Positions 53,003 to 64,000 of a stretch of 64,000 bases of DNA are shown in pieces. The notes beneath the pieces were generated by a model, which saw nothing but the letters and a program-made list of their open reading frames with translations, was not told the DNA's origin and searched no databases. This DNA comes from Promethearchaeota archaeon (GTDB taxonomy: Archaea > Asgardarchaeota > Lokiarchaeia > Sigyniarchaeales > SOKP01). The position numbers and the translations under genes were made by a program. Position 1 is the first letter of the stretch. Each line of letters starts with the position of its first letter. Where the stretch lies: the NCBI GenBank assembly GCA_048940925.1, contig JBHLOC010000024.1, forward strand, positions 1 to 64,000, read 5' to 3'.

Positions 53003-55237
53003 TTAACTAAAATATTTTTTAATTAAAAATTCAAGGCTTTCCCACTTTTCAATAACACTACAAGTATCTTTTATATTTTTAACTAAAACCTTATACTCAT
53101 TATCAAATTCCTTGACTATAGCTTCAAGTTTTCTTTGAATTATTAATAGATCTTCTTTAACTACAAGTGCAAAAATAATATCATTTGTATTGTTGGTTTG
53201 AAAAATTATTTTACGATCTCCATGATCTACTGTCCTTATCTGTTTTTCGCCTTGAGCAACTAGTTTTAATATTGATAACATTCCAATTATTCCACCTGAA
53301 ATTAAAACAGAGTCATATTTCTCTTTTGTGCCTTCTACAAAAGGATGATCATAAAGCAGAATTCCTGATTTATAAATAATATAAATATAAATTAATGAAT
53401 TGATCCAATTTTTTAAAGGTAATCTTATAATAAATTTAGCTCCTTTATCTTTTCCTTTTGATTCAAAAATAATTTGACCTCCATGTAGATCAATGATTTC
53501 ATTTGAAAATTGTAATCCAAGTAAAGATTCTTGCGAATTCAATAAATTTCTTTTTAAATAGATTCTATTTTTTTCTAGTTCTGTTAATCCAACACTATTA
53601 TTTTTTATAGTTATTTGAGCAAAATTATTACTTTTTTGTAAACATATTGATATATCAACTTTCTTAGAAGTATTTTTTATTATATACAGTAATAAATCTT
53701 TAATCACGTGCACCATTCTAACCTTATCGACCTCTGAGTACAAATCTTCTGATATATCTAATGCAAGATTAAATTTTCGCTTATTTATATTACTCATTAT
53801 ATCATCTATCGATTCTCTAATTATCTCGATTATACTCTCTGTTTGCTTTTTTAATTTTAATTTATCAGATTCAATTCTAGAAATATCTACAATTCTTTCA
53901 ACCAAATTTATTGATTTTTCTCCTCCACTTTTAATTAATTCTAACAGTTGTATCGCATTTTGATCTAATTTATCTTTATATGAGTTTAAAAGAATTTTGG
54001 ATGCATTAGACATAACATTTAATGGTGATTTCAATTCTTTTGAGGTTTGGGCAGTTAATTCCTTTTTAACTTGATCCAATTTCCTTAACCTCTCATTTTC
54101 TTCTTTAATAATCTTTTCTGCTAATTTCTTTTCAGTTATATCCTGCACAATAACTTGAATATATTTTTTACTCCCAATTTTTAATGATGAGAAAAAACAT
54201 TCAACCCAAGCTATATTATAGTCTTCATCATGATACATAAAATCTATAATTTCACTTAAATCATAATCAAAAGCATTTTGAATTATTTCTTTAACTGAAT
54301 CAAGTTGGTTTTCATTTATTTGGAAAATATCAAAAAAAGATTTACCTTTTAATTCCTCTTTAGGTTTATTTAAATAGATTTTAGCAAGGCTATTGCAATC
54401 ATGAACATTTTTGTTCAAATCTAATAAAATTATAGGATAGGGAAAGTTTTCAACCAGATTTCGAAATTTTTCTTCGATATTTTTACGATCTGTTATATCC
54501 CTTATTATATCTATTATTGCTTGTTGACCGTTAAAATTAAATGTCGGAGTACAATTATATTCAAAATATTTTTTCTCATATGTCATAGGATCTATAAATT
54601 CTTTTTCAAATCTAATAACATCATAATTATTTGTTAATTTATTAAAAGTACAATGTTCACACACATTTTCTCTATTCATTAAAACATTATAACAAATATT
54701 TCCACTAAGATGAGATCCAAATTCTTCTTCTGCTTTTCTATTCAGGTATAAAATTCTGTGATCTTTCGAGATGACTATAATTGAATCATTAACATTTGAT
54801 AATATTAAATTTAATTTTGCTTCTGATTCTTTGATTTCTTGCTCGATTTTCTTACGTTCGGTTATATCTCTTCCAATTTTAACTATCTCCTCTATCTTTC
54901 CATCTTTAGTCTTGAGTGGGTACGCTAAAAGTTCCACATACGCTTCTTCTCCGTTTATATGATGAGTATGGATAACCTCACAAAATTGCCCAGTTCTTAA
55001 TACACTCTCAACTGGACATTTACATTCTGGTGGTCTACAAATCTTTTTTCGATTGTGAGTTAATTTATAACATTTTCTTCCTATAGCCTCTTTTTTAGAC
55101 ACACCATATTTTAAACAAAAAGTTTTGTTTACATCTATTATTCTATAATTTTTATCTAAAACCGTTATTTCATCGAATATAGAATCAAAAATTAACGTTA
55201 AATAATCAATGTCTTGAATTCTTTTGTTTTCCAGCAT
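53003..55237 (-). CDS. PAS-PAS-PAS pseudo-histidine kinase with C-terminal longin-like domain
   Basis: H-box SKELKSPL (His replaced by Lys); degenerate N/G1/G2 boxes; tail YIIYKSGILLYD...LISGGIIG...IRTVDHGDRKIIF. Confidence 0.85.
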   Translation of the reverse strand: MLENKRIQDIDYLTLIFDSIFDEITVLDKNYRIIDVNKTFCLKYGVSKKEAIGRKCYKLTHNRKKICRPPECKCPVESVLRTGQFCEVIHTHHINGEEAYVELLAYPLKTKDGKIEEIVKIGRDITERKKIEQEIKESEAKLNLILSNVNDSIIVISKDHRILYLNRKAEEEFGSHLSGNICYNVLMNRENVCEHCTFNKLTNNYDVIRFEKEFIDPMTYEKKYFEYNCTPTFNFNGQQAIIDIIRDITDRKNIEEKFRNLVENFPYPIILLDLNKNVHDCNSLAKIYLNKPKEELKGKSFFDIFQINENQLDSVKEIIQNAFDYDLSEIIDFMYHDEDYNIAWVECFFSSLKIGSKKYIQVIVQDITEKKLAEKIIKEENERLRKLDQVKKELTAQTSKELKSPLNVMSNASKILLNSYKDKLDQNAIQLLELIKSGGEKSINLVERIVDISRIESDKLKLKKQTESIIEIIRESIDDIMSNINKRKFNLALDISEDLYSEVDKVRMVHVIKDLLLYIIKNTSKKVDISICLQKSNNFAQITIKNNSVGLTELEKNRIYLKRNLLNSQESLLGLQFSNEIIDLHGGQIIFESKGKDKGAKFIIRLPLKNWINSLIYIYIIYKSGILLYDHPFVEGTKEKYDSVLISGGIIGMLSILKLVAQGEKQIRTVDHGDRKIIFQTNNTNDIIFALVVKEDLLIIQRKLEAIVKEFDNEYKVLVKNIKDTCSVIEKWESLEFLIKKYFS

Positions 55238-55251
55238 TTTTTCGCTTTTTT

Positions 55252-56838
55252 TTAATAGATATTTATATTTATTCCATTTAGAATATCCTTATTAATATTG
55301 GGAAAGCTAAGTTCAATTAGGATGATAAACTTACTTCCTTCTCGATAATCTCCTTTAGCCCTATCCTCAACCCAAATTTGTCCATTATATTCTTCTATTA
55401 TTTTTTTTACCAATGATAGCCCCAATCCCATGTTAATGCTATTTCTCACTTTTTTTTCTGCACGCAGAAAAATTTTTTCTTTCATATTATCTGGTACCCC
55501 CATCCCATTATCAATAAATTCTAATTTGAGATATTTAATGTTATTTTTTTGTTCTTTAGAGATCTTGATAATTATTTCTATTATTTGATGGTTGTTATGT
55601 CTTATAGCATTTATTAAAATATTTTCAAATACGTCAAGTAAGAGGTCGTTTGCTTTAACATAAAATTTTTTGTTAGGGGGATAAACTTGAATATTAATTT
55701 TTTTACCTTTGTAACTTTTGATTACATACTGAATTGAACGTTTTAATACTTCATTAACTTCGATTGATGTTATAGATAATCCAGTTTCTTCAATCTCAGA
55801 AAGTTTTCTTACATTAGAAACTAAATTTGCCCCTCTGATAACCTGCTCTATAGCAATATTTATCAATTCATCTACATTTTCATTTCCTTTAAAATTTTTT
55901 AAATATAAAGATAGAAGCTCCAATGATGATTCTATACTTTGAAAAATATTATTAATGTCGTGAGCAAAGAGATCCTTATAGAAATTCGCACGGTTATAAG
56001 CTTCGCGATATTTTTTTTCTGAATCAATTAAAATTTTTTCCGCATTTTTCCTATAGGTTATATCTCTTACAATATCTACTATTGCTGGTTGGCCATTAAA
56101 GTTTTCAATTGGTGTACATCTGTATTCATAAAATTTATTATCATTAGTTAAAGGTTTGATAATTTTAGATTCAAAACTAATAACTCTATTATTTGTATTA
56201 ATAAATTTAGTAAAAGTACAATTTTCACATACATTATCTCTATTCATTAGAACATCATAACAAATATTTCCACTAAGATGAGATCCAAATTCTTCTTCTG
56301 CTTTTCTATTCATGTATAAAATTCTGTGATCTTTTGAAATGACTATGATGGAATCATCCACATTTGATAATATTGTATTCATATTTGATTCGGATTGTTT
56401 AATTTCTTGCTCAATTTTCTTGCGTTCGGTGATATCTCTTCCAATTTTAACTATCTGCTTTATCTTACCATCTTTTGTCTTGATTGGATAGGCTAAAAGT
56501 TCGACATACATTTCTTCACCATTTATATGATGAATATGAATAGTCTCACTGAATTGCCCAGTTTTTAATACATCTTCAACGGGACATTTACATTCTGGTG
56601 GTCTACAAATCTTTTCTCGGTTGTGAGTTACCTCATAACATTTTCTTCCTATTGTTTTATCTCTAGAAACACCATATTTTAAGCAAAAAGTTTTATTTAC
56701 ATCCATTATTCTATAATTTTTATCTAAAACTGTTATTTCATCAAATATAGAGTCAAAAATTGATAATAAAGGATCCTCTTCTTGATCTTTTTGTTTTTTT
56801 CTAATAATGTTCACCTTTTTTCTTAAAAAAACTATCAT
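55252..56838 (-). CDS. PAS-PAS sensor histidine kinase
   Basis: H-box AHDINN, N-box ENILINA, G1 DNGMG and G2 GLGL. Confidence 0.92.
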   Translation of the reverse strand: MIVFLRKKVNIIRKKQKDQEEDPLLSIFDSIFDEITVLDKNYRIMDVNKTFCLKYGVSRDKTIGRKCYEVTHNREKICRPPECKCPVEDVLKTGQFSETIHIHHINGEEMYVELLAYPIKTKDGKIKQIVKIGRDITERKKIEQEIKQSESNMNTILSNVDDSIIVISKDHRILYMNRKAEEEFGSHLSGNICYDVLMNRDNVCENCTFTKFINTNNRVISFESKIIKPLTNDNKFYEYRCTPIENFNGQPAIVDIVRDITYRKNAEKILIDSEKKYREAYNRANFYKDLFAHDINNIFQSIESSLELLSLYLKNFKGNENVDELINIAIEQVIRGANLVSNVRKLSEIEETGLSITSIEVNEVLKRSIQYVIKSYKGKKINIQVYPPNKKFYVKANDLLLDVFENILINAIRHNNHQIIEIIIKISKEQKNNIKYLKLEFIDNGMGVPDNMKEKIFLRAEKKVRNSINMGLGLSLVKKIIEEYNGQIWVEDRAKGDYREGSKFIILIELSFPNINKDILNGININIY

Positions 56839-56856: not shown

Positions 56857-56985
56857 TTATATCTTGAGCGAAGTGTAACCACATTGATTACAAACAATTT
56901 CACCCATTTGTTTTATTGAAATTATATCCCTGGCACATTCCGGACATGAATTAAAGGTATTAATCTTTTCCTTTATTATTACCAA
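56857..56985 (-). CDS. 42-aa stand-alone TFIIB-type zinc ribbon
   Basis: Not in track: MVIIKEKINTFNSCPECARDIISIKQMGEIVCNQCGYTSLKI (TTG start). Confidence 0.72.
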   Translation of the reverse strand: MVIIKEKINTFNSCPECARDIISIKQMGEIVCNQCGYTSLKI

Positions 56986-57245: not shown

Positions 57246-57911
57246 TTACTTCAATTGTTGTATTTTTTTTATAATTTCTTTAAGGTATAAATCTCCCATC
57301 CCTAAACGAACAGTATTAGAAAGAATTAATGTAATTATAAGTGATACATTACTAATTTGAATAAATTGGGAAAAAATTTTTTGATCATTTTCTAGAACTA
57401 AAAAATATTTTTTCACCATTATTAGATTTTTCTCATTTCTTACTTCGAATTCTCTGATCGTGTGAAATAATGTTTTCAATGGTAAAGATGAGTATAGAAC
57501 TTTTCCTTCTAATGTAAAGAGAGAACTTCCAAGAATATTATTTCCATCTACATAGTTTCTTAAAAGCCTAATTAAATCTTGAGAAAACGATAACATATTA
57601 AAAAATGAATTTTTATTTTTCTCCTGTGTTCCTTTAAATTCTAAGGATTCAATTGTATCATCATAAAATTCTATTCTCGATAATTCAAAATCAACTTTTT
57701 GATATCCTCTAACTTTAAAATTTTTATCTACAAATAATTGAAAGGTGTGTTTACAAACTAATCCAGAAGGGACAGAAACTGTAGTTAATCGCTTATTTTG
57801 GTTTATTATTTGAAATGGAATTTTCAAAATTTTCTTTTGATTACATAAGGGACACTGTATTAGAACATTTTGAGTATAATTTTCGTAACCAATATTTTCT
57901 TTATTAATCAA
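57246..57911 (-). CDS. Zn-ribbon plus roadblock/longin-like domain protein
   Basis: CPLC...CKH..VDKNFKVRGYQ; C-terminal ILGSSLFTLEGKVLYSSLP. Confidence 0.7.
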   Translation of the reverse strand: MINKENIGYENYTQNVLIQCPLCNQKKILKIPFQIINQNKRLTTVSVPSGLVCKHTFQLFVDKNFKVRGYQKVDFELSRIEFYDDTIESLEFKGTQEKNKNSFFNMLSFSQDLIRLLRNYVDGNNILGSSLFTLEGKVLYSSLPLKTLFHTIREFEVRNEKNLIMVKKYFLVLENDQKIFSQFIQISNVSLIITLILSNTVRLGMGDLYLKEIIKKIQQLK

Positions 57912-57940
57912 CTCAACACACTTGTTTTTTATAGGTTATA

Positions 57941-59401
57941 TTAAATTTTATTATGAGTTTTACTTAGATCAAGAAATTTTTCTTCAAAATACAATTCCTT
58001 TTCCTTCACATAATACTGACAATTTTGCTTTTCTAATCCAGTTACATAAATATTTTTTCTGGTACACCAATAAAGCCCTGTTGGATTTGGATTATATGCA
58101 TATTTACAATCCGAAGAAATAAACTCCTTTTTTTCTTCCCTCCAATTAAAAAATTCAAACAATTTTTGGCAGTGTCTTCCAGAGTTTTTATCAAATGGAT
58201 AACTCATTATACAATGAGTTCCAGTTCCCGTTTTTCTAAGTTTTACAGGAACAAATCCTAATCTAGTAAAAAATTTTAATTTATATGGAATACATTTCGC
58301 AACTAATAAGAAGACATTAAATTTATCATATTTTTCTAGTTCATGGTGAAACATAAATTCAACAAATTTTGATCCTAATCCCATTCTCCTATAATTCTCT
58401 TGAACTTCTAATGTGTCGAAATAAAAAATATACGTATTGTTATGTTTAAATAAAAATATTAAATTTAAACAGCCAATAATTCTATTAGTACCATTTATGA
58501 TATAATGTGAGTGATTCAAATAACCAAAATGCCAAATCCCTGGATTTTTAATATTTTCAAAAAATTTCTGCGGTAAATTTTCTCTTCGAACCATTTTAAA
58601 TATATAATCTTTTAAGAGTTTTCTCAAATGAGGTGATAGTTTACCAAAGATTTTTTCATTTCGTTCCTTTAAACGCCATAATGGAATTATGTTCTTTTCA
58701 ATTATTGGATATAACTCATTCCTTTCGATGACACTCTCTAAAGCTGACGAAACATAATCTTCTAAACCAAAATGTTGATCTTTTAACATATTTATAAGGA
58801 TCTCTACTGCTTTTTTATCACCTATACTTCCTAATGCTTCAATAATGTTTTTTTTAATTAGGAATTTCAAATTTTTTTTTGACAGCATTTTAATTAACTT
58901 ATCCACACATCGATAATCACCTATTATTCCAAGAGTCCATATAATATCTTTCTTAATCCAATCGTTTTCTCTTTCCAATAGGTTTAGTAAAATTTCTACT
59001 GAATGATTATCCCCAATATAAGCAAGTGCTAATATAACACTTTTCCTAATATAAATATTATTGTCTTTTAATAATTCAAATAAGTCTTTTAAAGTATTAT
59101 TATCTCCAATTCTCCCCAATCCTTCAATGGCATATTGTCGAATTCTTACTTTAATATCCTCATTAGAAGCGATTTTAAGTAATAATTTGACATTATCTTT
59201 TCCAATTTTCCCAATTATTTTTGGAACTAAATATGAAGACCCTTTAAAGTAAGTGTTTAACAAAGAAATAAGAGTTTCATAATTGCCATTTTTTTCTAAA
59301 GCTAAAACTGCCTTTCTTCTAATGCTAGGATCATCATGATTTAAATTTTCAAGTAAAACTTCATTAATTATTCTTTCATTAATCTTCTTTTTCCCCAACA
59401 T
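57941..59401 (-). CDS. HEAT-repeat / GNAT acetyltransferase / three-Cys domain fusion
   Basis: PBS-lyase-type HEAT repeats (ALGSIGD), GNAT motif A VQENYRRMGLGSK and FFTRLGF, C-terminal C-x13-C-x14-C. Confidence 0.85.
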   Translation of the reverse strand: MLGKKKINERIINEVLLENLNHDDPSIRRKAVLALEKNGNYETLISLLNTYFKGSSYLVPKIIGKIGKDNVKLLLKIASNEDIKVRIRQYAIEGLGRIGDNNTLKDLFELLKDNNIYIRKSVILALAYIGDNHSVEILLNLLERENDWIKKDIIWTLGIIGDYRCVDKLIKMLSKKNLKFLIKKNIIEALGSIGDKKAVEILINMLKDQHFGLEDYVSSALESVIERNELYPIIEKNIIPLWRLKERNEKIFGKLSPHLRKLLKDYIFKMVRRENLPQKFFENIKNPGIWHFGYLNHSHYIINGTNRIIGCLNLIFLFKHNNTYIFYFDTLEVQENYRRMGLGSKFVEFMFHHELEKYDKFNVFLLVAKCIPYKLKFFTRLGFVPVKLRKTGTGTHCIMSYPFDKNSGRHCQKLFEFFNWREEKKEFISSDCKYAYNPNPTGLYWCTRKNIYVTGLEKQNCQYYVKEKELYFEEKFLDLSKTHNKI

Positions 59402-59476
59402 TTACTCCAAAATATAACCTCTGTTCATGCAATTAATGTTGTTTTTCAATCTTATGCTGTTTAAATTTTTGATAAT

Positions 59477-59926
59477 TCAATGTAATGAACTTATATTACC
59501 TAAACTTTCATTTTGCTCATGATCGGAAAAATATTTTGATAATTTTCGAATCGTTTGATTTAATTCAAATAGAATTACACCTAAGTTTAAATAAATTGGA
59601 AATATAACTGAAAGCCTTATATCGTATGTGACTGATTCAAGAACAATGATAAATCCGTCATTATCTAGTTGATCCCCTGCTTGAATTAAAACCTGTTTTA
59701 TTTTATTGTTTTCTTTTAATATCTCGACACAGTTTTCAGCCAAAGAGACAATGCCAGCACTCAATGCACTAATAGATTGATGATAATTTTCATCTTCGTT
59801 GAAATTTATGCGATCTACTGTAATTAAAAAACCATCTTCAGTAAATAAGGTGGAACTCACTATACCTGTCCTATCTCTAAACGATTTTAAAATATTTTGG
59901 ATTTCTTTTTCCTGCATACTAACCAT
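59477..59926 (-). CDS. roadblock/LC7 (MglB-like) protein
   Basis: STLFTEDGFLI, ISALSAGI and NLGVILFE. Confidence 0.85.
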   Translation of the reverse strand: MVSMQEKEIQNILKSFRDRTGIVSSTLFTEDGFLITVDRINFNEDENYHQSISALSAGIVSLAENCVEILKENNKIKQVLIQAGDQLDNDGFIIVLESVTYDIRLSVIFPIYLNLGVILFELNQTIRKLSKYFSDHEQNESLGNISSLH

Positions 59927-60590
59927 CTTGGACGACTACCTCCTTTTCACCAATATTATTTTCATTCGTTTCATTACTTACAAATTTTAGTATTTGTATA
60001 ATCGCATCTTTTATCCCTATATTATATTTCGCAGATCCTTTGAATACTCGTTCACCTATCATATTTGAAATCATATCACAACCATGGTAATCATCTCTAT
60101 CTGATTTATTTGCAATAATCCTCATGGGAATAGTATTTCCTAAATTAACTTTAGTTTCTTCTAAAATTACTAATGCATTTCCAATATTCGCTAAATCACA
60201 ACCATCTATTAAAAAGATTACACCATCACTTCCTTTTGCTAAAATTTTTCGAACAGCAGAAAATTGAATTTGACCAGGACATCCTTTTAATTCAAGTTCA
60301 TTTATAAACCACCCTAAATATTCATCTCTATCTCTTAAATATTCACTCTCACTCATTATTACTCCTTCCGTTTCATAATTTAAATTTGGTCTCGCCCATA
60401 TCAGTCTTCCTAAATCAAAACCTGTAGTAGTATGCGTTTTATCTTCGTCATATGCTTTATGTAATTCTTTTTCAACATGGATTGCCTTCCCATCAAGAGT
60501 GTGCACTAAGGTACTTTTTCCAGAATTAAAGAATCCTGTTATGAAAATTTTTACCTTTTTGTCATTCAATTTATAATTCCCACATCCCAA
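59919..60590 (-). CDS. MglA/CvnD-type small GTPase
   Basis: GFFNSGKST, TTTGFDLG, GCPGQ, NKSD and SAK; overlaps the roadblock gene. Confidence 0.88.
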   Translation of the reverse strand: MGCGNYKLNDKKVKIFITGFFNSGKSTLVHTLDGKAIHVEKELHKAYDEDKTHTTTGFDLGRLIWARPNLNYETEGVIMSESEYLRDRDEYLGWFINELELKGCPGQIQFSAVRKILAKGSDGVIFLIDGCDLANIGNALVILEETKVNLGNTIPMRIIANKSDRDDYHGCDMISNMIGERVFKGSAKYNIGIKDAIIQILKFVSNETNENNIGEKEVVVQDG

Positions 60591-60905
60591 TTTTTAAAAT
60601 GAAATTTTAATAAATGATAATTTAATAAATTTTTCTAAAAATTTATATTATTTTTATATATAATCTTATTATTCTAATCCCTTTCCATATAAATCTCTAA
60701 TAATAATAATGTTTCCTCTATATATTTAAATCTTTAGATTAAATATTATTATAGAAATTTTCCTAAAAAAGAACCTTTTTATAAAAACATTTAAATATAA
60801 ATTTTTTTATAATCTTTCTATATAAAAATCTAATAAGAAAATAATTTTTATATAAAAAACGCCAAAAAATATAAAAAATAAAATAAAGTATATAGATGAT
60901 ATATA

Positions 60906-61382
60906 ATGGCTAATTATAAACAATTATCTGATTTTTTAAATGCCATGACTGGTGTAACTGTTGAATCTTTATTAAATATGGGACTAAATATTCCCTTAAT
61001 TTGGAATGAATTTGCGAATTCATTTAATAAAGATGGAGTCAAGGGCTTTCTAAAGGATTGTGGATTGGTGATCGATGGCTCTGATGTTAAATCGATAACA
61101 GAAGATTTTGCAAAAAAAGTAAAGGAGGTTGGTTTTTGTCAAAGGGCAAATATCATAGAAGCTAATGACAATAAAGTTGTTTTAGATCTTGGAGAATGTG
61201 TTTTAGCTCCTGTAACAAAAGTTATAAGAGGTACTGATTTGAACATGATACCTCCTTGTCCAATGATGGCTCTTTTATATGGTACGATAGAAACAAAAAC
61301 AGGAAAAAAGGGATCTATTGAGAAAGCAGAGTGGAAACCTGAAGAAAATACAACAATTTTTACATTGAATTTGGAGGGATAA
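60906..61382 (+). CDS. V4R / methanogen-output-domain-like small-ligand or metal-binding protein
   Basis: GFC...LDLGECVL...PPCPM..L pattern. Confidence 0.6.
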   Translation: MANYKQLSDFLNAMTGVTVESLLNMGLNIPLIWNEFANSFNKDGVKGFLKDCGLVIDGSDVKSITEDFAKKVKEVGFCQRANIIEANDNKVVLDLGECVLAPVTKVIRGTDLNMIPPCPMMALLYGTIETKTGKKGSIEKAEWKPEENTTIFTLNLEG

Positions 61383-61386
61383 AGAA

Positions 61387-61512
61387 ATGGCCAAATCAGA
61401 CTGCATTCATGCTGGAGATGAAAATTCTGAAGGTTTAGTTTGGTGTAATAAAAAAAATATTTATGTTTCAGCAAAAGAGAAGGACACATGTCCCGATTAT
61501 AAACCAAAATAA
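61387..61512 (+). CDS. 41-aa three-Cys microprotein
   Basis: Not in track: MAKSDCIHAGDENSEGLVWCNKKNIYVSAKEKDTCPDYKPK; GGAGG upstream; fits between neighbours; homologous to 58010-58114. Confidence 0.88.
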   Translation: MAKSDCIHAGDENSEGLVWCNKKNIYVSAKEKDTCPDYKPK

Positions 61513-61528
61513 AATCAGGTGTAAAAAA

Positions 61529-61894
61529 ATGAGTGCAAAAGAACAAAAAGTGAAGGATATATTATTTGACCTAGAAAAAAATTCAGAAGTGTCTAATAGT
61601 GCTCTTGTATCGTTAAAAGGACAGATGATGGCGAGCGCGTTACATAAAGACGTTGACGATAGAGCTGTAGCAGCAATGACTGCAGCATTAACATCAGTTG
61701 GAGCCAGAGTTGCCGAGACACTAAATTCCGGAAAAACAGGATCTATTTTCATTACCGGAGATAGTAGATTAATTGTATTGCACCAATTGGCTCAAGCAGT
61801 ACTAATTGCGATAGCTCCTGCTGATGCAAAAGTAGGTTTAATTGATTTCGAAGTAAATGCTGCTCTGGATAAAATAAAAATGGTTCTAGGATAA
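61529..61894 (+). CDS. roadblock/LC7 (MglB-like) protein
   Basis: Start corrected to MSAKEQ after AGGTG; SALVSLKGQMMAS, VAAMTAA and KVGLIDFE. Confidence 0.9.
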   Translation: MSAKEQKVKDILFDLEKNSEVSNSALVSLKGQMMASALHKDVDDRAVAAMTAALTSVGARVAETLNSGKTGSIFITGDSRLIVLHQLAQAVLIAIAPADAKVGLIDFEVNAALDKIKMVLG

Positions 61895-61999
61895 ATAATT
61901 ATATAATTAATTAATTTTTATTTTTTTTATTTTTTAAATTTCATAGTTTAGAATTAAAATTAACAAAATTAGAAGAATTATTACATAATAACATGGGAG

Positions 62000-62455
62000 A
62001 TGATTTTGTTAGAAATAAAAGAAAAGCTAATAAAATTATTAGATGATCTTATTACCAACACGAATATAAGTAGTACTAGTTTAATAACAGAAGATGGTTT
62101 AGTTATTGCTGTAAACAGTGAACAAGACATTGACGATGAGGAAATTAACTATAATTTTGCGGCAATTTCAGCTAGTATGTTGTCAATGGCAGAAAGAGGG
62201 ATAGAAATTATTAATGCAAATAAAATACTAGAACAAATTAAAATTGATGCTGGTTTAAACGAAAATATTGACGCTGATTTTACAATCTTAATCACGAGAG
62301 TCTTTTCTAATGTACTTTTACAATTAATTTTTCCTAAAAGAATTAATATTGGATTAATTCATTTCGAAACTAACAAGATCATTAAAGAAATAAGAAATGT
62401 AGTTCAGGAAGATACTTCTAGAGAACTTTTTACAAGTCTAGGTTCTCTTACATAA
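62000..62455 (+). CDS. roadblock/LC7 protein (paralogue of 59477..59926)
   Basis: SLITEDGLVIA, FAAISASM and NIGLIHFE. Confidence 0.88.
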   Translation: MILLEIKEKLIKLLDDLITNTNISSTSLITEDGLVIAVNSEQDIDDEEINYNFAAISASMLSMAERGIEIINANKILEQIKIDAGLNENIDADFTILITRVFSNVLLQLIFPKRINIGLIHFETNKIIKEIRNVVQEDTSRELFTSLGSLT

Positions 62456-62515
62456 ATTTGAATCCAAAAAATTAAGTATTCAATCAAATAATATAATTTA
62501 CAATGGTAATTAAAC

Positions 62516-64000
62516 TTGAATAATGATAAAAATCACGAAAATGATAATAAAGTTAATGAGAATGATATAAAAAAACATTCTATAAAAGATTATAATTCCT
62601 ATGGGTTAAAAGAAAAAGTAAAATTTTATGAAGAAGAAGATCTTAGCTCAGAAGTAAAAAACGTTCTTAATGAAGTTTTTACAGATATGAATAAAGTTGA
62701 TGACAATGTTGAGACAAAAATCAGTGATGAATATGAAGAGTCAAAAACTGAGCCTTCTATTACTGATGAAAGTACAATTAGAGTAAGTAAAAACGATTTG
62801 AAAAAAGAAATAGGTCAACAAAATATTGGACTTTTTAATAATATCGAAGAATTAAAAGAGACACCAGAAAAGATCTTAGAAAACCTAAAGAAAGAGGATT
62901 ACAGTTCTTTTAAACATAAGTTGACCCTATTAAAAGAATTGGAATCGTTTCACGAGAATAAATTAAAAGAATTAGAAGAAAAAATTAAAGTTTATAATGA
63001 GAAACATAAAAAATTAGAAAAAACAATTGAAGAATATGATGAGAGAAACAATGAACTAGTAGAAAAGAGAAAAGAATACGAAGAGAGAGTAAAAGAATTT
63101 GAAGAAAAAAGCAAATCAATGGAAGAAAGTAAAGAAGAATTAATGCAACGCGTTAAACAATTAGAAGAAAGTAAAGAAGAATTTACAGACCGAAATACAA
63201 AATTAAAGGAAGCAAGAGAACAATTTATGGAATTGAGTAAGCAAATGGAGGAGAAAAAGAGAGATCTGGAGAAATGGGAAAGAAAATTGGAAAAATTGCA
63301 GAAAAATTTGGAAAAAAGTAAATTTGACTTAGAAAGAAACAAAATAGAATTTGAGAAGAATAAGTTAGAATTTGAAATAAGCAAATCAGAATCTGAAAAA
63401 AGCATAGATGTCTTAAGTACAAAAGAAGTTCCAATGGAAATTAAGAGAGAAGAAGACAGAATTACTATATTGGATAAAAAGGAGAAGAAAAAAGGTAGAG
63501 CGGCAATTTTGCAAGATATGCTAGAAGAATTATCATATAAAGGAGATTTTCAATCATGTCTTTTAATAGATGGGAAGGGAATGTTAATTTCGGAACATTC
63601 TAAGAAAAAATTGGATGAGATGGCAATAGGCGCAATGTTTTCATTAGTTTGCACAAATATATTAAGAGCTATTAAAAGTTTAAATTTACAAGAATTAGAA
63701 TATTTTAAAATGGCCTCTACTAATGGAGAATTTATGCTTAAAAATATCGATATCACAAATTATGAGAGAAATTTTATACTTATAGCACATTATATTAAAT
63801 CAGACTCAATTCTCCCAGATATTACGCAGAAAATAAATAAGAAAGCAATTAAGAAAATTTTGGATAGTGTAAAAAGGGATTTTAATGAATTTGGAAGAGG
63901 AACCAAAATTTCTTGGGTTTTTGATAATTTAGAAAATAAAGTTAATTTTTTAAAAGAAACATATAAAACACCAGAAAAAGATGTAGAATTAATAAGAAGA
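62516..64000 (+). CDS. acidic region + long coiled coil + roadblock-like domain protein (3' truncated by window)
   Basis: Not in track (no stop). TTG at 62516; E/K heptads ~62880-63400; CLLIDGKGMLISE...IGAMFS at ~63490-63800. Confidence 0.8.
   Translation, partial: MNNDKNHENDNKVNENDIKKHSIKDYNSYGLKEKVKFYEEEDLSSEVKNVLNEVFTDMNKVDDNVETKISDEYEESKTEPSITDESTIRVSKNDLKKEIGQQNIGLFNNIEELKETPEKILENLKKEDYSSFKHKLTLLKELESFHENKLKELEEKIKVYNEKHKKLEKTIEEYDERNNELVEKRKEYEERVKEFEEKSKSMEESKEELMQRVKQLEESKEEFTDRNTKLKEAREQFMELSKQMEEKKRDLEKWERKLEKLQKNLEKSKFDLERNKIEFEKNKLEFEISKSESEKSIDVLSTKEVPMEIKREEDRITILDKKEKKKGRAAILQDMLEELSYKGDFQSCLLIDGKGMLISEHSKKKLDEMAIGAMFSLVCTNILRAIKSLNLQELEYFKMASTNGEFMLKNIDITNYERNFILIAHYIKSDSILPDITQKINKKAIKKILDSVKRDFNEFGRGTKISWVFDNLENKVNFLKETYKTPEKDVELIRR

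Follow-up and report, generated by a model that had tools for sequence, protein, structure and literature searches.

The last part of the 64,000-nucleotide stretch of Promethearchaeota DNA analyzed here (the window, bases 1-64000 of the 79.7-kb contig C82) encodes a small GTPase together with five roadblock domains, a protein with a Bet3-like fold, a cysteine microprotein, and an acetyltransferase. We find that this locus is conserved and elaborates on the MglA/MglB-type G-protein module in a way that has apparently not been described before, with the window holding the most elaborate, lineage-specific form. The analysis shows the gene content, the folds, the family relations, the conservation of the gene order, and the joint inheritance of the genes, and we consider it probable that the window contains one of two paralogous copies of an archaeal G-protein signaling cassette in which a platform of roadblock proteins sets the state of the GTPase. 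The source genome, labeled G000, is a 4.8-Mb draft from a Promethearchaeia (Loki-type Asgard) archaeon with a GC content of 29.6% in 90 contigs. A preliminary description, made from the letters of the DNA, had proposed two operons diverging from 60591-60905, and the open reading frames (ORFs) agree exactly with it, as all nine lie where it had placed them:

57246-57911, minus strand: ZnRbl, 221 amino acids (aa), with a zinc (Zn)-ribbon-like N-terminal domain and a C-terminal roadblock domain
57941-59401, minus strand: protein of 486 aa with HEAT repeats, a GNAT domain, and a C-terminal Cys3 microdomain (~58004-58129)
59477-59926, minus strand: roadblock protein RblC, 149 aa, a core cassette member
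59919-60590, minus strand: MglA-type small GTPase, 223 aa
60591-60905: AT-rich divergent intergenic region with the presumed promoters of both arms
60906-61382, plus strand: TRAPPC3/Bet3/V4R-fold protein, 158 aa
61387-61512, plus strand: Cys3 microprotein, 41 aa
61529-61894, plus strand: roadblock protein RblG, 121 aa, the most conserved core member
62000-62455, plus strand: roadblock protein RblH, 151 aa
62516-64000, plus strand, running on past the window: coiled-coil protein with a C-terminal roadblock domain

The genes for the GTPase and RblC overlap by 8 nucleotides (nt), and only 4 nt separate the gene of the Bet3-fold protein from that of the microprotein, both of which are operon signals. 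The spacer between the two arms has 315 bp with 17.6% GC and contains many TATA-like runs. For RblG, a start at 61463 was regarded as an over-extension and 61529 was preferred, because the orthologues begin at MSAK.

The conservation of this gene set was analyzed in 400 genomes of the phylum, and about 120 loci were fetched and their ORFs classified by family hidden Markov models (HMMs). Counts were taken from 32 loci that were seeded by the GTPase alone and had at least 2.5 kb of flanking DNA on each side. All 32 of these loci had RblG, 31 had RblC, and 31 also had a further roadblock, encoded by what we call the fourth core gene. At least three roadblock genes were found in 31/32 loci and at least four in 14/32. 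The Bet3-fold protein and the microprotein each occurred in 19/32, always as a pair. The recurrent arrangement is co-linear, in the order Bet3-fold protein, microprotein, RblG, GTPase, RblC, and a short fourth-gene roadblock, sometimes with one more roadblock, and this order is kept in metagenome-assembled genomes (MAGs) labeled Loki-, Hel-, Thor-, Hermod-, Heimdall-, and Hodarchaeota as well as in Candidatus Harpocratesius repetitus. The cassette is thus real and conserved phylum-wide and not a chance cluster, and the proposal of a dedicated, co-conserved system of a GTPase and multiple roadblocks was borne out by this synteny check, which had been set beforehand. A mere chance neighborhood of paralogues that are abundant in Asgard archaea could have been suspected, as G000 holds 44 small-GTPase-like and 23 RblG-like ORF matches. 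We nevertheless regard it as highly improbable: several classes share both the families and their order, the genes overlap or nearly abut, two paralogous cassettes have each been inherited as a block, and the synteny counts already contradict it.

The GTPase is a single G domain of 223 aa with matches to Pfam Arf and to the TIGR small_GTP model. In an alignment of 22-33 orthologues, the motifs G1 (GxxxxGK(S/T)), G2 (TTT(T/V)GFD), G4 (ANKxD), and G5 (SA(K/Q)) show little or no variation. Nearly all P-loop GTPases have a canonical aspartate in G3. The G3 motif of the orthologues reads (K/R)-G-x-P-G-Q without this aspartate, with G103, P105, G106, and Q107 being invariant. A G3 lacking the Asp of DxxGQ is the hallmark of the MglA family (Wuichet and Sogaard-Andersen 2015, PMC4316618). 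Members of this family are also characterized by a coupled MglB-type roadblock gene, and the counts for RblG and RblC given above show this coupling. A search of the PDB with the single sequence gave MglA as the best match (1.3e-4). The alignment further revealed a conserved insertion of ~28 aa between G2 and G3, which we could match to no described family. More distant relatives of the GTPase, in MAGs of Nitrososphaerota and Thermoproteota, are encoded in a GTPase-roadblock pair only. The N-terminal MGCG of the GTPase in the window was considered as a lipidation signal and was ruled out, as it is not conserved among the orthologues.

The preliminary description had counted four or five different roadblock domains, and we found five, each backed by sequence or fold evidence from Pfam, hhalign, or AlphaFold2 (AF2) and Foldseek. 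RblG matched Pfam Robl_LC7 above the cut-off (2e-9, 37 bits), and its profile found the Asgard roadblock structures 9jue, 7f8m, and 7yh1 in the PDB at 5e-18 to 6e-12, followed by CvnB5 (3leq, 1.3e-6), MglB (5e-5), and LAMTOR2 (0.02). RblC (1.8e-4, 21.6 bits) and RblH (1.7e-3, 18.5 bits) scored below the Robl_LC7 cut-off of 23, and RblH additionally matched the NCBIfam MglB model NF052242 (9e-4). RblC and RblH resemble each other at ~1e-17 to 1e-19 with 32% identity, and RblH resembles RblG at 2e-6; we regard RblH as a duplicate of RblC in Loki-type cassettes. Both proteins have short conserved C-terminal tails at the position that is occupied by the regulatory Ct-helix in MglB. In the orthologues of RblH the tail ends with LF-x-x-(L/I)GSL, and the RblC proteins of Hel-, Heimdall-, and Thor-type cassettes share a conserved terminal ...E(S/T)(V/M)(L/T).

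The fourth roadblock domain is located at the C-terminus of the coiled-coil protein, whose Glu/Lys-rich N-terminal part of ~330 aa gave ERM_helical and SMC-like coiled-coil matches in Pfam and NCBIfam. Comparison of the C-terminal domain with the RblG profile by hhalign resulted in a probability of 97% and an E-value of 9e-11, and the Heimdall orthologue passes Pfam Robl_LC7 with 27.8 bits. Orthologues elsewhere are short proteins of 140-220 aa without a coiled coil and represent the fourth core gene. The gene extends ~126 nt beyond the window to ~64126 on C82, where a scaffold gap of 10 N at ~64100-64126 (L001:4100-4126) cuts its 3' end, and the true C-terminus of the protein is therefore not given by the assembly.

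The fifth domain belongs to ZnRbl, for which the AF2 model (predicted local distance difference test, pLDDT, 76.9) shows a beta-rich N-terminal domain with C20, C23, C53, and H55 (C-x2-C...C-x-H), a disordered linker, and a C-terminal domain. The latter (residues 105-221) has the a-b-b-a-b-b-b-a topology of a roadblock, and its best Foldseek matches were the MK-D1 roadblocks 7yh1 and 9jue, MglB, and LAMTOR2, with template modeling scores by target of 0.6-0.7; hhalign against RblG gave an E-value of 9e-4. The 312 public homologues of ZnRbl are all annotated as hypothetical and have no Pfam domain. The Zn-ribbon/roadblock-like character proposed earlier for this protein thus holds for the fold. 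Its place in the system does not stand in the same way, as only 3/32 cassettes, all of the window's own family, encode it, and as it belongs to a multi-copy family with paralogues elsewhere in G000 (C22:38752-39402, C86:60581-61261, C39:29375-30355, and others).

So many roadblocks at one locus could also form a passive scaffold like Ragulator, in which the four to five domains stack as a tether, together with the coiled coil, and localize the GTPase and kinases without any GTPase-activating protein (GAP) or guanine nucleotide exchange factor (GEF) activity. The number of distinct paralogues per locus, which reaches at least four in 14 of the 32 cassettes, would suit such a scaffold, as would the coiled-coil extension on the last roadblock, the LAMTOR2 match of the RblG profile, and the agreement of the ZnRbl model with LAMTOR2/3. 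However, the GTPase has no C-terminal roadblock domain, by which Rags dock on Ragulator, a Pfam scan of the locus proteins found no LAMTOR1-like wrapping subunit, and CvnB and MglB, which both regulate the nucleotide state, are closer in sequence. We therefore judge a purely passive role unlikely.

The first gene of the plus arm had been described as encoding a V4R-like protein, and structure prediction agreed with this. With an alignment of 36 orthologues, AF2 folded the 158-aa protein at a pLDDT of 93.7, and the best Foldseek matches of the model were TRAPPC3/Bet3 chains (E-value of 4.5e-5 to 6aq3), including Thor-TRAPPC3 (7yh3). VIA-align gave Z-scores of 10-11 to Bet3/TRAPPC3 (including 7yh3) and Trs31 with 141-149 residues aligned, 9.5-9.9 to the V4R sensors of MopR/PoxR, and 7.5-8.5 to H-NOX; over the Bet3, V4R, and H-NOX matches, 130-149 residues were covered. 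The model shows the two-layer arrangement of four helices and four strands that defines the V4R/Bet3/H-NOX fold over the whole domain. As Z differences of less than 1 unit were treated as ties, Bet3 and V4R tie, and we speak of a Bet3/V4R fold and not of a TRAPP subunit. At the level of sequence, the protein had no Pfam match at E <= 1, V4R (PF02830) and TRAPP_Bet3 (PF04051) included, and a PDB search with its profile returned neither V4R nor Bet3 chains. The 33 remote relatives had no Pfam V4R or TRAPP_Bet3 match at <= 0.01 either, so that no transitive link emerged from them. The family is small, with 78 representative clusters among 1.84 billion proteins, and its homologues in public records are annotated as hypothetical proteins.

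C98, P116, and C118 are near-invariant in the alignment of the Bet3-fold protein, and both cysteines stay invariant in the remote relatives. C98 lies at the end of a strand and C118 at the start of a helix, and they are the only two conserved cysteines, whereas in Thor-TRAPPC3 a Zn site of four cysteines tethers the sheet to helix D. A variant arrangement was seen in a Baldrarchaeota MAG (L152:5392-7807), with genes for a GTPase, a roadblock, a Bet3-fold-like protein, another roadblock, and another Bet3-fold-like protein, where the Bet3-fold HMM scored weakly (30-46 bits).

As the closest folds are TRAPPC3/Bet3 and Trs31, both from TRAPP, the Bet3-fold protein and a roadblock heterodimer might act as a proto-TRAPP-like GEF that exchanges the nucleotide of the GTPase and serves membrane or vesicle targeting rather than signaling. 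TRAPP combines Bet3-fold subunits with a Rab-contacting longin heterodimer, longins and roadblocks are related platforms (Levine 2013, PMC3747258; Tran 2024, PMC10933270), and the gene of the Bet3-fold protein is tightly linked to those of the roadblocks and the GTPase. Several aspects make this explanation improbable. The V4R ligand sensors are tied with Bet3, the sequences give no link to Pfam TRAPP_Bet3 or V4R, and the pair is absent from part of the cassettes (13/32). Furthermore, the platform consists of roadblocks and not longins, the GTPase is of the MglA type and not a Rab, and the neighboring genes encode PAS kinases and helix-turn-helix (HTH)-PAS proteins, not membrane proteins.

The 41-codon frame following the Bet3-fold gene was confirmed as a 3-Cys microprotein, and its conservation indicates that it is a real gene: in 47 orthologues, C6, W19-C20, and C35 are invariant. 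In 71/76 cases the Bet3-fold gene is immediately followed by this gene, three of the five exceptions fall at a contig or locus end, and the microprotein was never found without the Bet3-fold gene in the loci fetched. Its profile had no match in the PDB, and an Atlas features search with it returned only clusters annotated as hypothetical. A predicted complex of the Bet3-fold protein, the microprotein, and Zn scored 0.16 relative to a mark of 0.32, which speaks neither for nor against binding. Four of the Thor-type loci have, besides the downstream copy, a second free-standing microprotein gene ~200-300 nt upstream of the Bet3-fold gene:

L060:2075-2191: extra upstream microprotein gene, Thor-type locus
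L064:1729-1854: extra upstream microprotein gene, Thor-type locus
L066:2845-2964: extra upstream microprotein gene, Thor-type locus
L070:9126-9278: extra upstream microprotein gene, Thor-type locus

The 486-aa protein of the minus arm matched Pfam HEAT_2 (7e-30), Acetyltransf_7 (4e-6, 27.5 bits), and Acetyltransf_1 (3e-5, 24.7 bits), with both GNAT scores above their cut-offs, and the acetyl-CoA motif (Q/R)-x-x-G-x-(G/A) is present as R-R-M-G-L-G. Sequence comparison with the PDB gave only weak GNAT matches (Hpa2 and Naa50, E >= 0.1), and no subfamily was assigned. The C-terminus of the protein is 45-48% identical to the microprotein and keeps all of its invariant residues (C, W-C, C), which identifies it as a copy of the microprotein. 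Protein acetylation had been proposed as an output of the system, but it would be an accessory output and not a core one: GNAT-Cys3 occurs in 5/32 cassettes, all of the window's own family, and the HEAT fusion is narrower still. With the full-length HEAT-GNAT protein as query in 41 related genomes, matches via the GNAT-Cys3 part were found only on contig C51 of G000 and in G024, both without HEAT, and HEAT-GNAT orthologues are encoded in few other cassettes (G221, G197, and G203).

The fusion of a microprotein domain to the GNAT could be taken to mean that the GNAT, together with the Bet3-fold protein and the microprotein, belongs to an acetylation unit of its own, which would sense a metal or the redox state and have no more than a promoter region in common with an ordinary MglA/MglB pair, and the Bet3-fold/microprotein pair is indeed separable and present or absent as a block. 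We consider this quite unlikely, as outside the window's family the pair lies directly upstream of RblG and the GTPase, co-linear and with no GNAT, and as the microprotein was never found away from a roadblock/GTPase context in the loci fetched.

G000 contains a second complete cassette on contig C51 (L014:3942-12809), which the preliminary description had missed and whose proteins share 50-81% amino-acid identity with those of the window. It comprises genes for two PAS kinases, GNAT-Cys3 without HEAT, RblC, and the GTPase, and then for the Bet3-fold protein, the microprotein, RblG, RblH, and the coiled-coil roadblock protein; there is no Zn-ribbon roadblock. The nearest relative of each component of the window's cassette sits in one foreign locus (G221), and the nearest relatives of the C51 copy are found in another group of genomes. 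Pairwise distances correlate at 0.91 for GTPase and RblG and at 0.90 for GTPase and RblC, values that kinship alone could yield; the comparison of these sequences indicates inheritance as a block and not co-evolution. The divergent arms, RblH, the coiled-coil extension, GNAT-Cys3, and the Zn-ribbon roadblock were found only in the window's own family. The two-operon layout is present as initially described, but its distribution suggests that it is derived and that a single co-linear operon is the ancestral form. In the window's family, the operon would have been split into two divergent arms and would then have gained RblH, the coiled coil, ZnRbl, and the GNAT, with the order of split, duplication, and gains being read solely from the distribution.

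Beyond the minus arm, the window contains further genes that the preliminary description had not recognized as part of the picture, namely PAS kinases that are conserved neighbors of the cassette and the remnant of a TFB gene:

53003-56838, minus strand: two PAS histidine-kinase-type genes (Pfam PAS, HisKA, HATPase_c)
56857-56985, minus strand: what is left of a cassette-linked TFB paralogue, a 42-aa ORF with just the Zn ribbon

The kinase pair follows the minus arm in the window's family, and the cassette has orthologous kinase genes at its flanks on C51 and in at least nine other genomes. A kinase core was detected within 6 kb of 13/32 seeded cassettes, compared to 2.5 per Mb in G000 with the same detection method. 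Thor-type cassettes are preceded by a gene for a winged-helix-PAS protein and followed by a PAS-HisKA-HATPase_c kinase gene on the same strand. The neighboring kinases are soluble PAS-HisKA-HATPase_c proteins. The distal kinase-like protein of the window (744 aa) has a C-terminal domain of 135 aa (53003-53425, minus strand) that is conserved in nine cassette-linked kinases. This domain (53006-53425) gave no hhalign roadblock signal and no Pfam or PDB match, and its Atlas features similarity of 0.83 to a cluster labeled 'Roadblock/LAMTOR2, Fuz_longin_1 22%' is a lead only.

The TFB remnant is 81% identical over 36 aa to a 291-aa TFB encoded at the G221 locus (L048:14305-15180), whose full-length protein matches Pfam TFIIB at 1e-34, and a TFB paralogue is present at the orthologous loci of two genomes. 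According to the DNA alignment, a ~740-bp internal deletion in the window has fused codon ~37, in another frame, with the last codons.

Among described systems, the actinobacterial conservon is closest in logic. It consists of the histidine kinase CvnA, the roadblock CvnB, the DUF742 protein CvnC, and the MglA-group-2 GTPase CvnD (PMC4316618). Like the conservon, the cassette groups the genes of an MglA-family GTPase, a roadblock, and a histidine kinase and is multi-copy (two in G000), and the RblG profile matches CvnB5 better than MglB. However, the cassette lacks two of the defining features, as it has neither CvnC (DUF742) nor a CvnA-type membrane HAMP kinase with a C-terminal LPxR. It also differs in having three to five different roadblocks where the conservon has one, in adding the Bet3-fold protein, the Cys3 microprotein, the GNAT, and the coiled coil, and in being archaeal and not actinobacterial.

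With the MglA-MglB switch of Myxococcus and Thermus, and with the archaeal 'group 4' MglA, the cassette shares the G3 motif without aspartate and the coupling of the GTPase gene to roadblock genes, and RblH matches the MglB model of NCBIfam. MglB is a homodimer of one gene product, whereas the cassette encodes several paralogues, for which heterodimers are therefore expected. The insertion in the cassette GTPase lies between G2 and G3, while that of bacterial MglA lies between G1 and G2, and unlike in the MglA-MglB systems, no motility genes are found near the cassette. TRAPP cores (Bet3/TRAPPC3, Trs31, and Trs33 with longins) and Thor-TRAPPC3 (7yh2/7yh3) have in common with the cassette a Bet3 fold over the whole length and an encoding together with a GTPase and platform-fold proteins, but there is no sequence-level kinship, and the cassette has roadblock partners in place of longins and a GTPase other than a Rab. 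Together with the Rags, Ragulator (LAMTOR1-5) likewise uses several different roadblock subunits for one GTPase system, but the cassette has no LAMTOR1-like subunit, and its GTPase has no roadblock C-domain and does not correspond to a Rag heterodimer.

That GTPases and roadblocks are coupled in archaea is itself not new and goes back to Koonin and Aravind 2000 and to Wuichet 2015 (PMC4316618). No conserved neighbors of archaeal MglA were found (Wuichet and Sogaard-Andersen 2015, PMC4316618). A 2026 paper mentions AF3 models of a Thorarchaeota MglA/MglB pair (PMC13408092). Asgard roadblock and TRAPPC3-like structures have been solved (Tran et al. 2024, PMC10933270), and according to Tran et al., MK-D1 as a rule does not place its GTPase genes in one operon with genes for roadblocks, longins, or TRAPPC3, so that their pairing is hard to predict (PMC10933270). 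Liu et al. described few conserved neighborhoods of eukaryotic signature proteins (ESCRT; a LAMTOR1-like/Rab/DENN operon), and the cassette is not among them. The preliminary description had not recognized the architecture as a described one, and in agreement with this, a full-text literature search, whose coverage of journals is incomplete, found no published description of the cassette.

In the signaling cassette that we favor, the contacts between the proteins, the direction of signaling, and the ligand are all proposed by analogy to these systems. The core is the GTPase bracketed by RblG before it and the translationally coupled RblC after it, followed by a third roadblock. The roadblock paralogues would pair as heterodimers that serve as the GTPase-binding platform and determine the nucleotide state, the precedents being the MglB dimer that acts on MglA, the CvnB/CvnD pair, and Ragulator with the Rags. 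A sensor-fold protein with a cysteine microprotein at the input end had already been proposed and is supported by our analysis; the pair is optional and may sense a small molecule, a metal, or the redox state and bias the platform. As the Bet3-fold protein contains two invariant cysteines and the microprotein three, a shared or adjacent metal site is suggested. The GTP-bound GTPase could then act on the adjacent PAS kinase or pseudokinase proteins. In the window's lineage, the GNAT may dock via its microprotein-like domain at the usual site of the free microprotein, as suggested by the GNAT-microprotein fusion.

Several points weigh against this reading. The occurrence of the cassette is patchy: the GTPase orthologue was found in 55/400 genomes of the phylum (24/85 genera), including 6/53 genomes of the window's genus, and the Bet3-fold protein in 40 genomes, which makes the cassette accessory. 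As 13/32 cassettes lack the Bet3-fold/microprotein pair, the pair is not essential to the switch, and the GNAT and the Zn-ribbon roadblock are limited to one family. In the profile search of the PDB, the Asgard Arf-like structure 8oun (7.8e-13) and Arf ranked slightly above MglA (1.2e-9), so that it is the G3 motif and the coupling to roadblocks that carry the label MglA-type. As soluble PAS proteins, the kinases differ from CvnA, and a search of ten locus proteins at E <= 1 gave no DUF742/CvnC homologue. No physical or functional interaction emerged from any of the tools used. Finally, the genomes compared are MAGs, with an estimated contamination of 8.4% for G000.

A more far-reaching version of the favored reading, which seems possible and at the same time rather doubtful to us, would see in the cassette an archaeal forerunner of the eukaryotic GTPase regulators that combine roadblocks or longins with Bet3 proteins. 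Here, a Bet3-fold subunit with a metal site shared with the microprotein and a heteromeric roadblock platform would together be the GEF/GAP of one GTPase, wired to two-component kinases and, in the window's lineage, to an acetyltransferase docked by its microprotein copy.

Asgard archaea encode dozens of small GTPases together with roadblock/longin and Bet3-like proteins. These are interpreted as forerunners of the eukaryotic machinery for trafficking and nutrient signaling, and it is not known which regulators pair with which GTPase. The cassette names a defined partner set, comprising one GTPase, three to five roadblocks, the Bet3-fold protein, the Cys3 microprotein, and kinases. The two diverged paralogous cassettes within one genome suit tests of partner specificity, and the fusion of GNAT and microprotein in the window's lineage is a natural pointer to a docking site.

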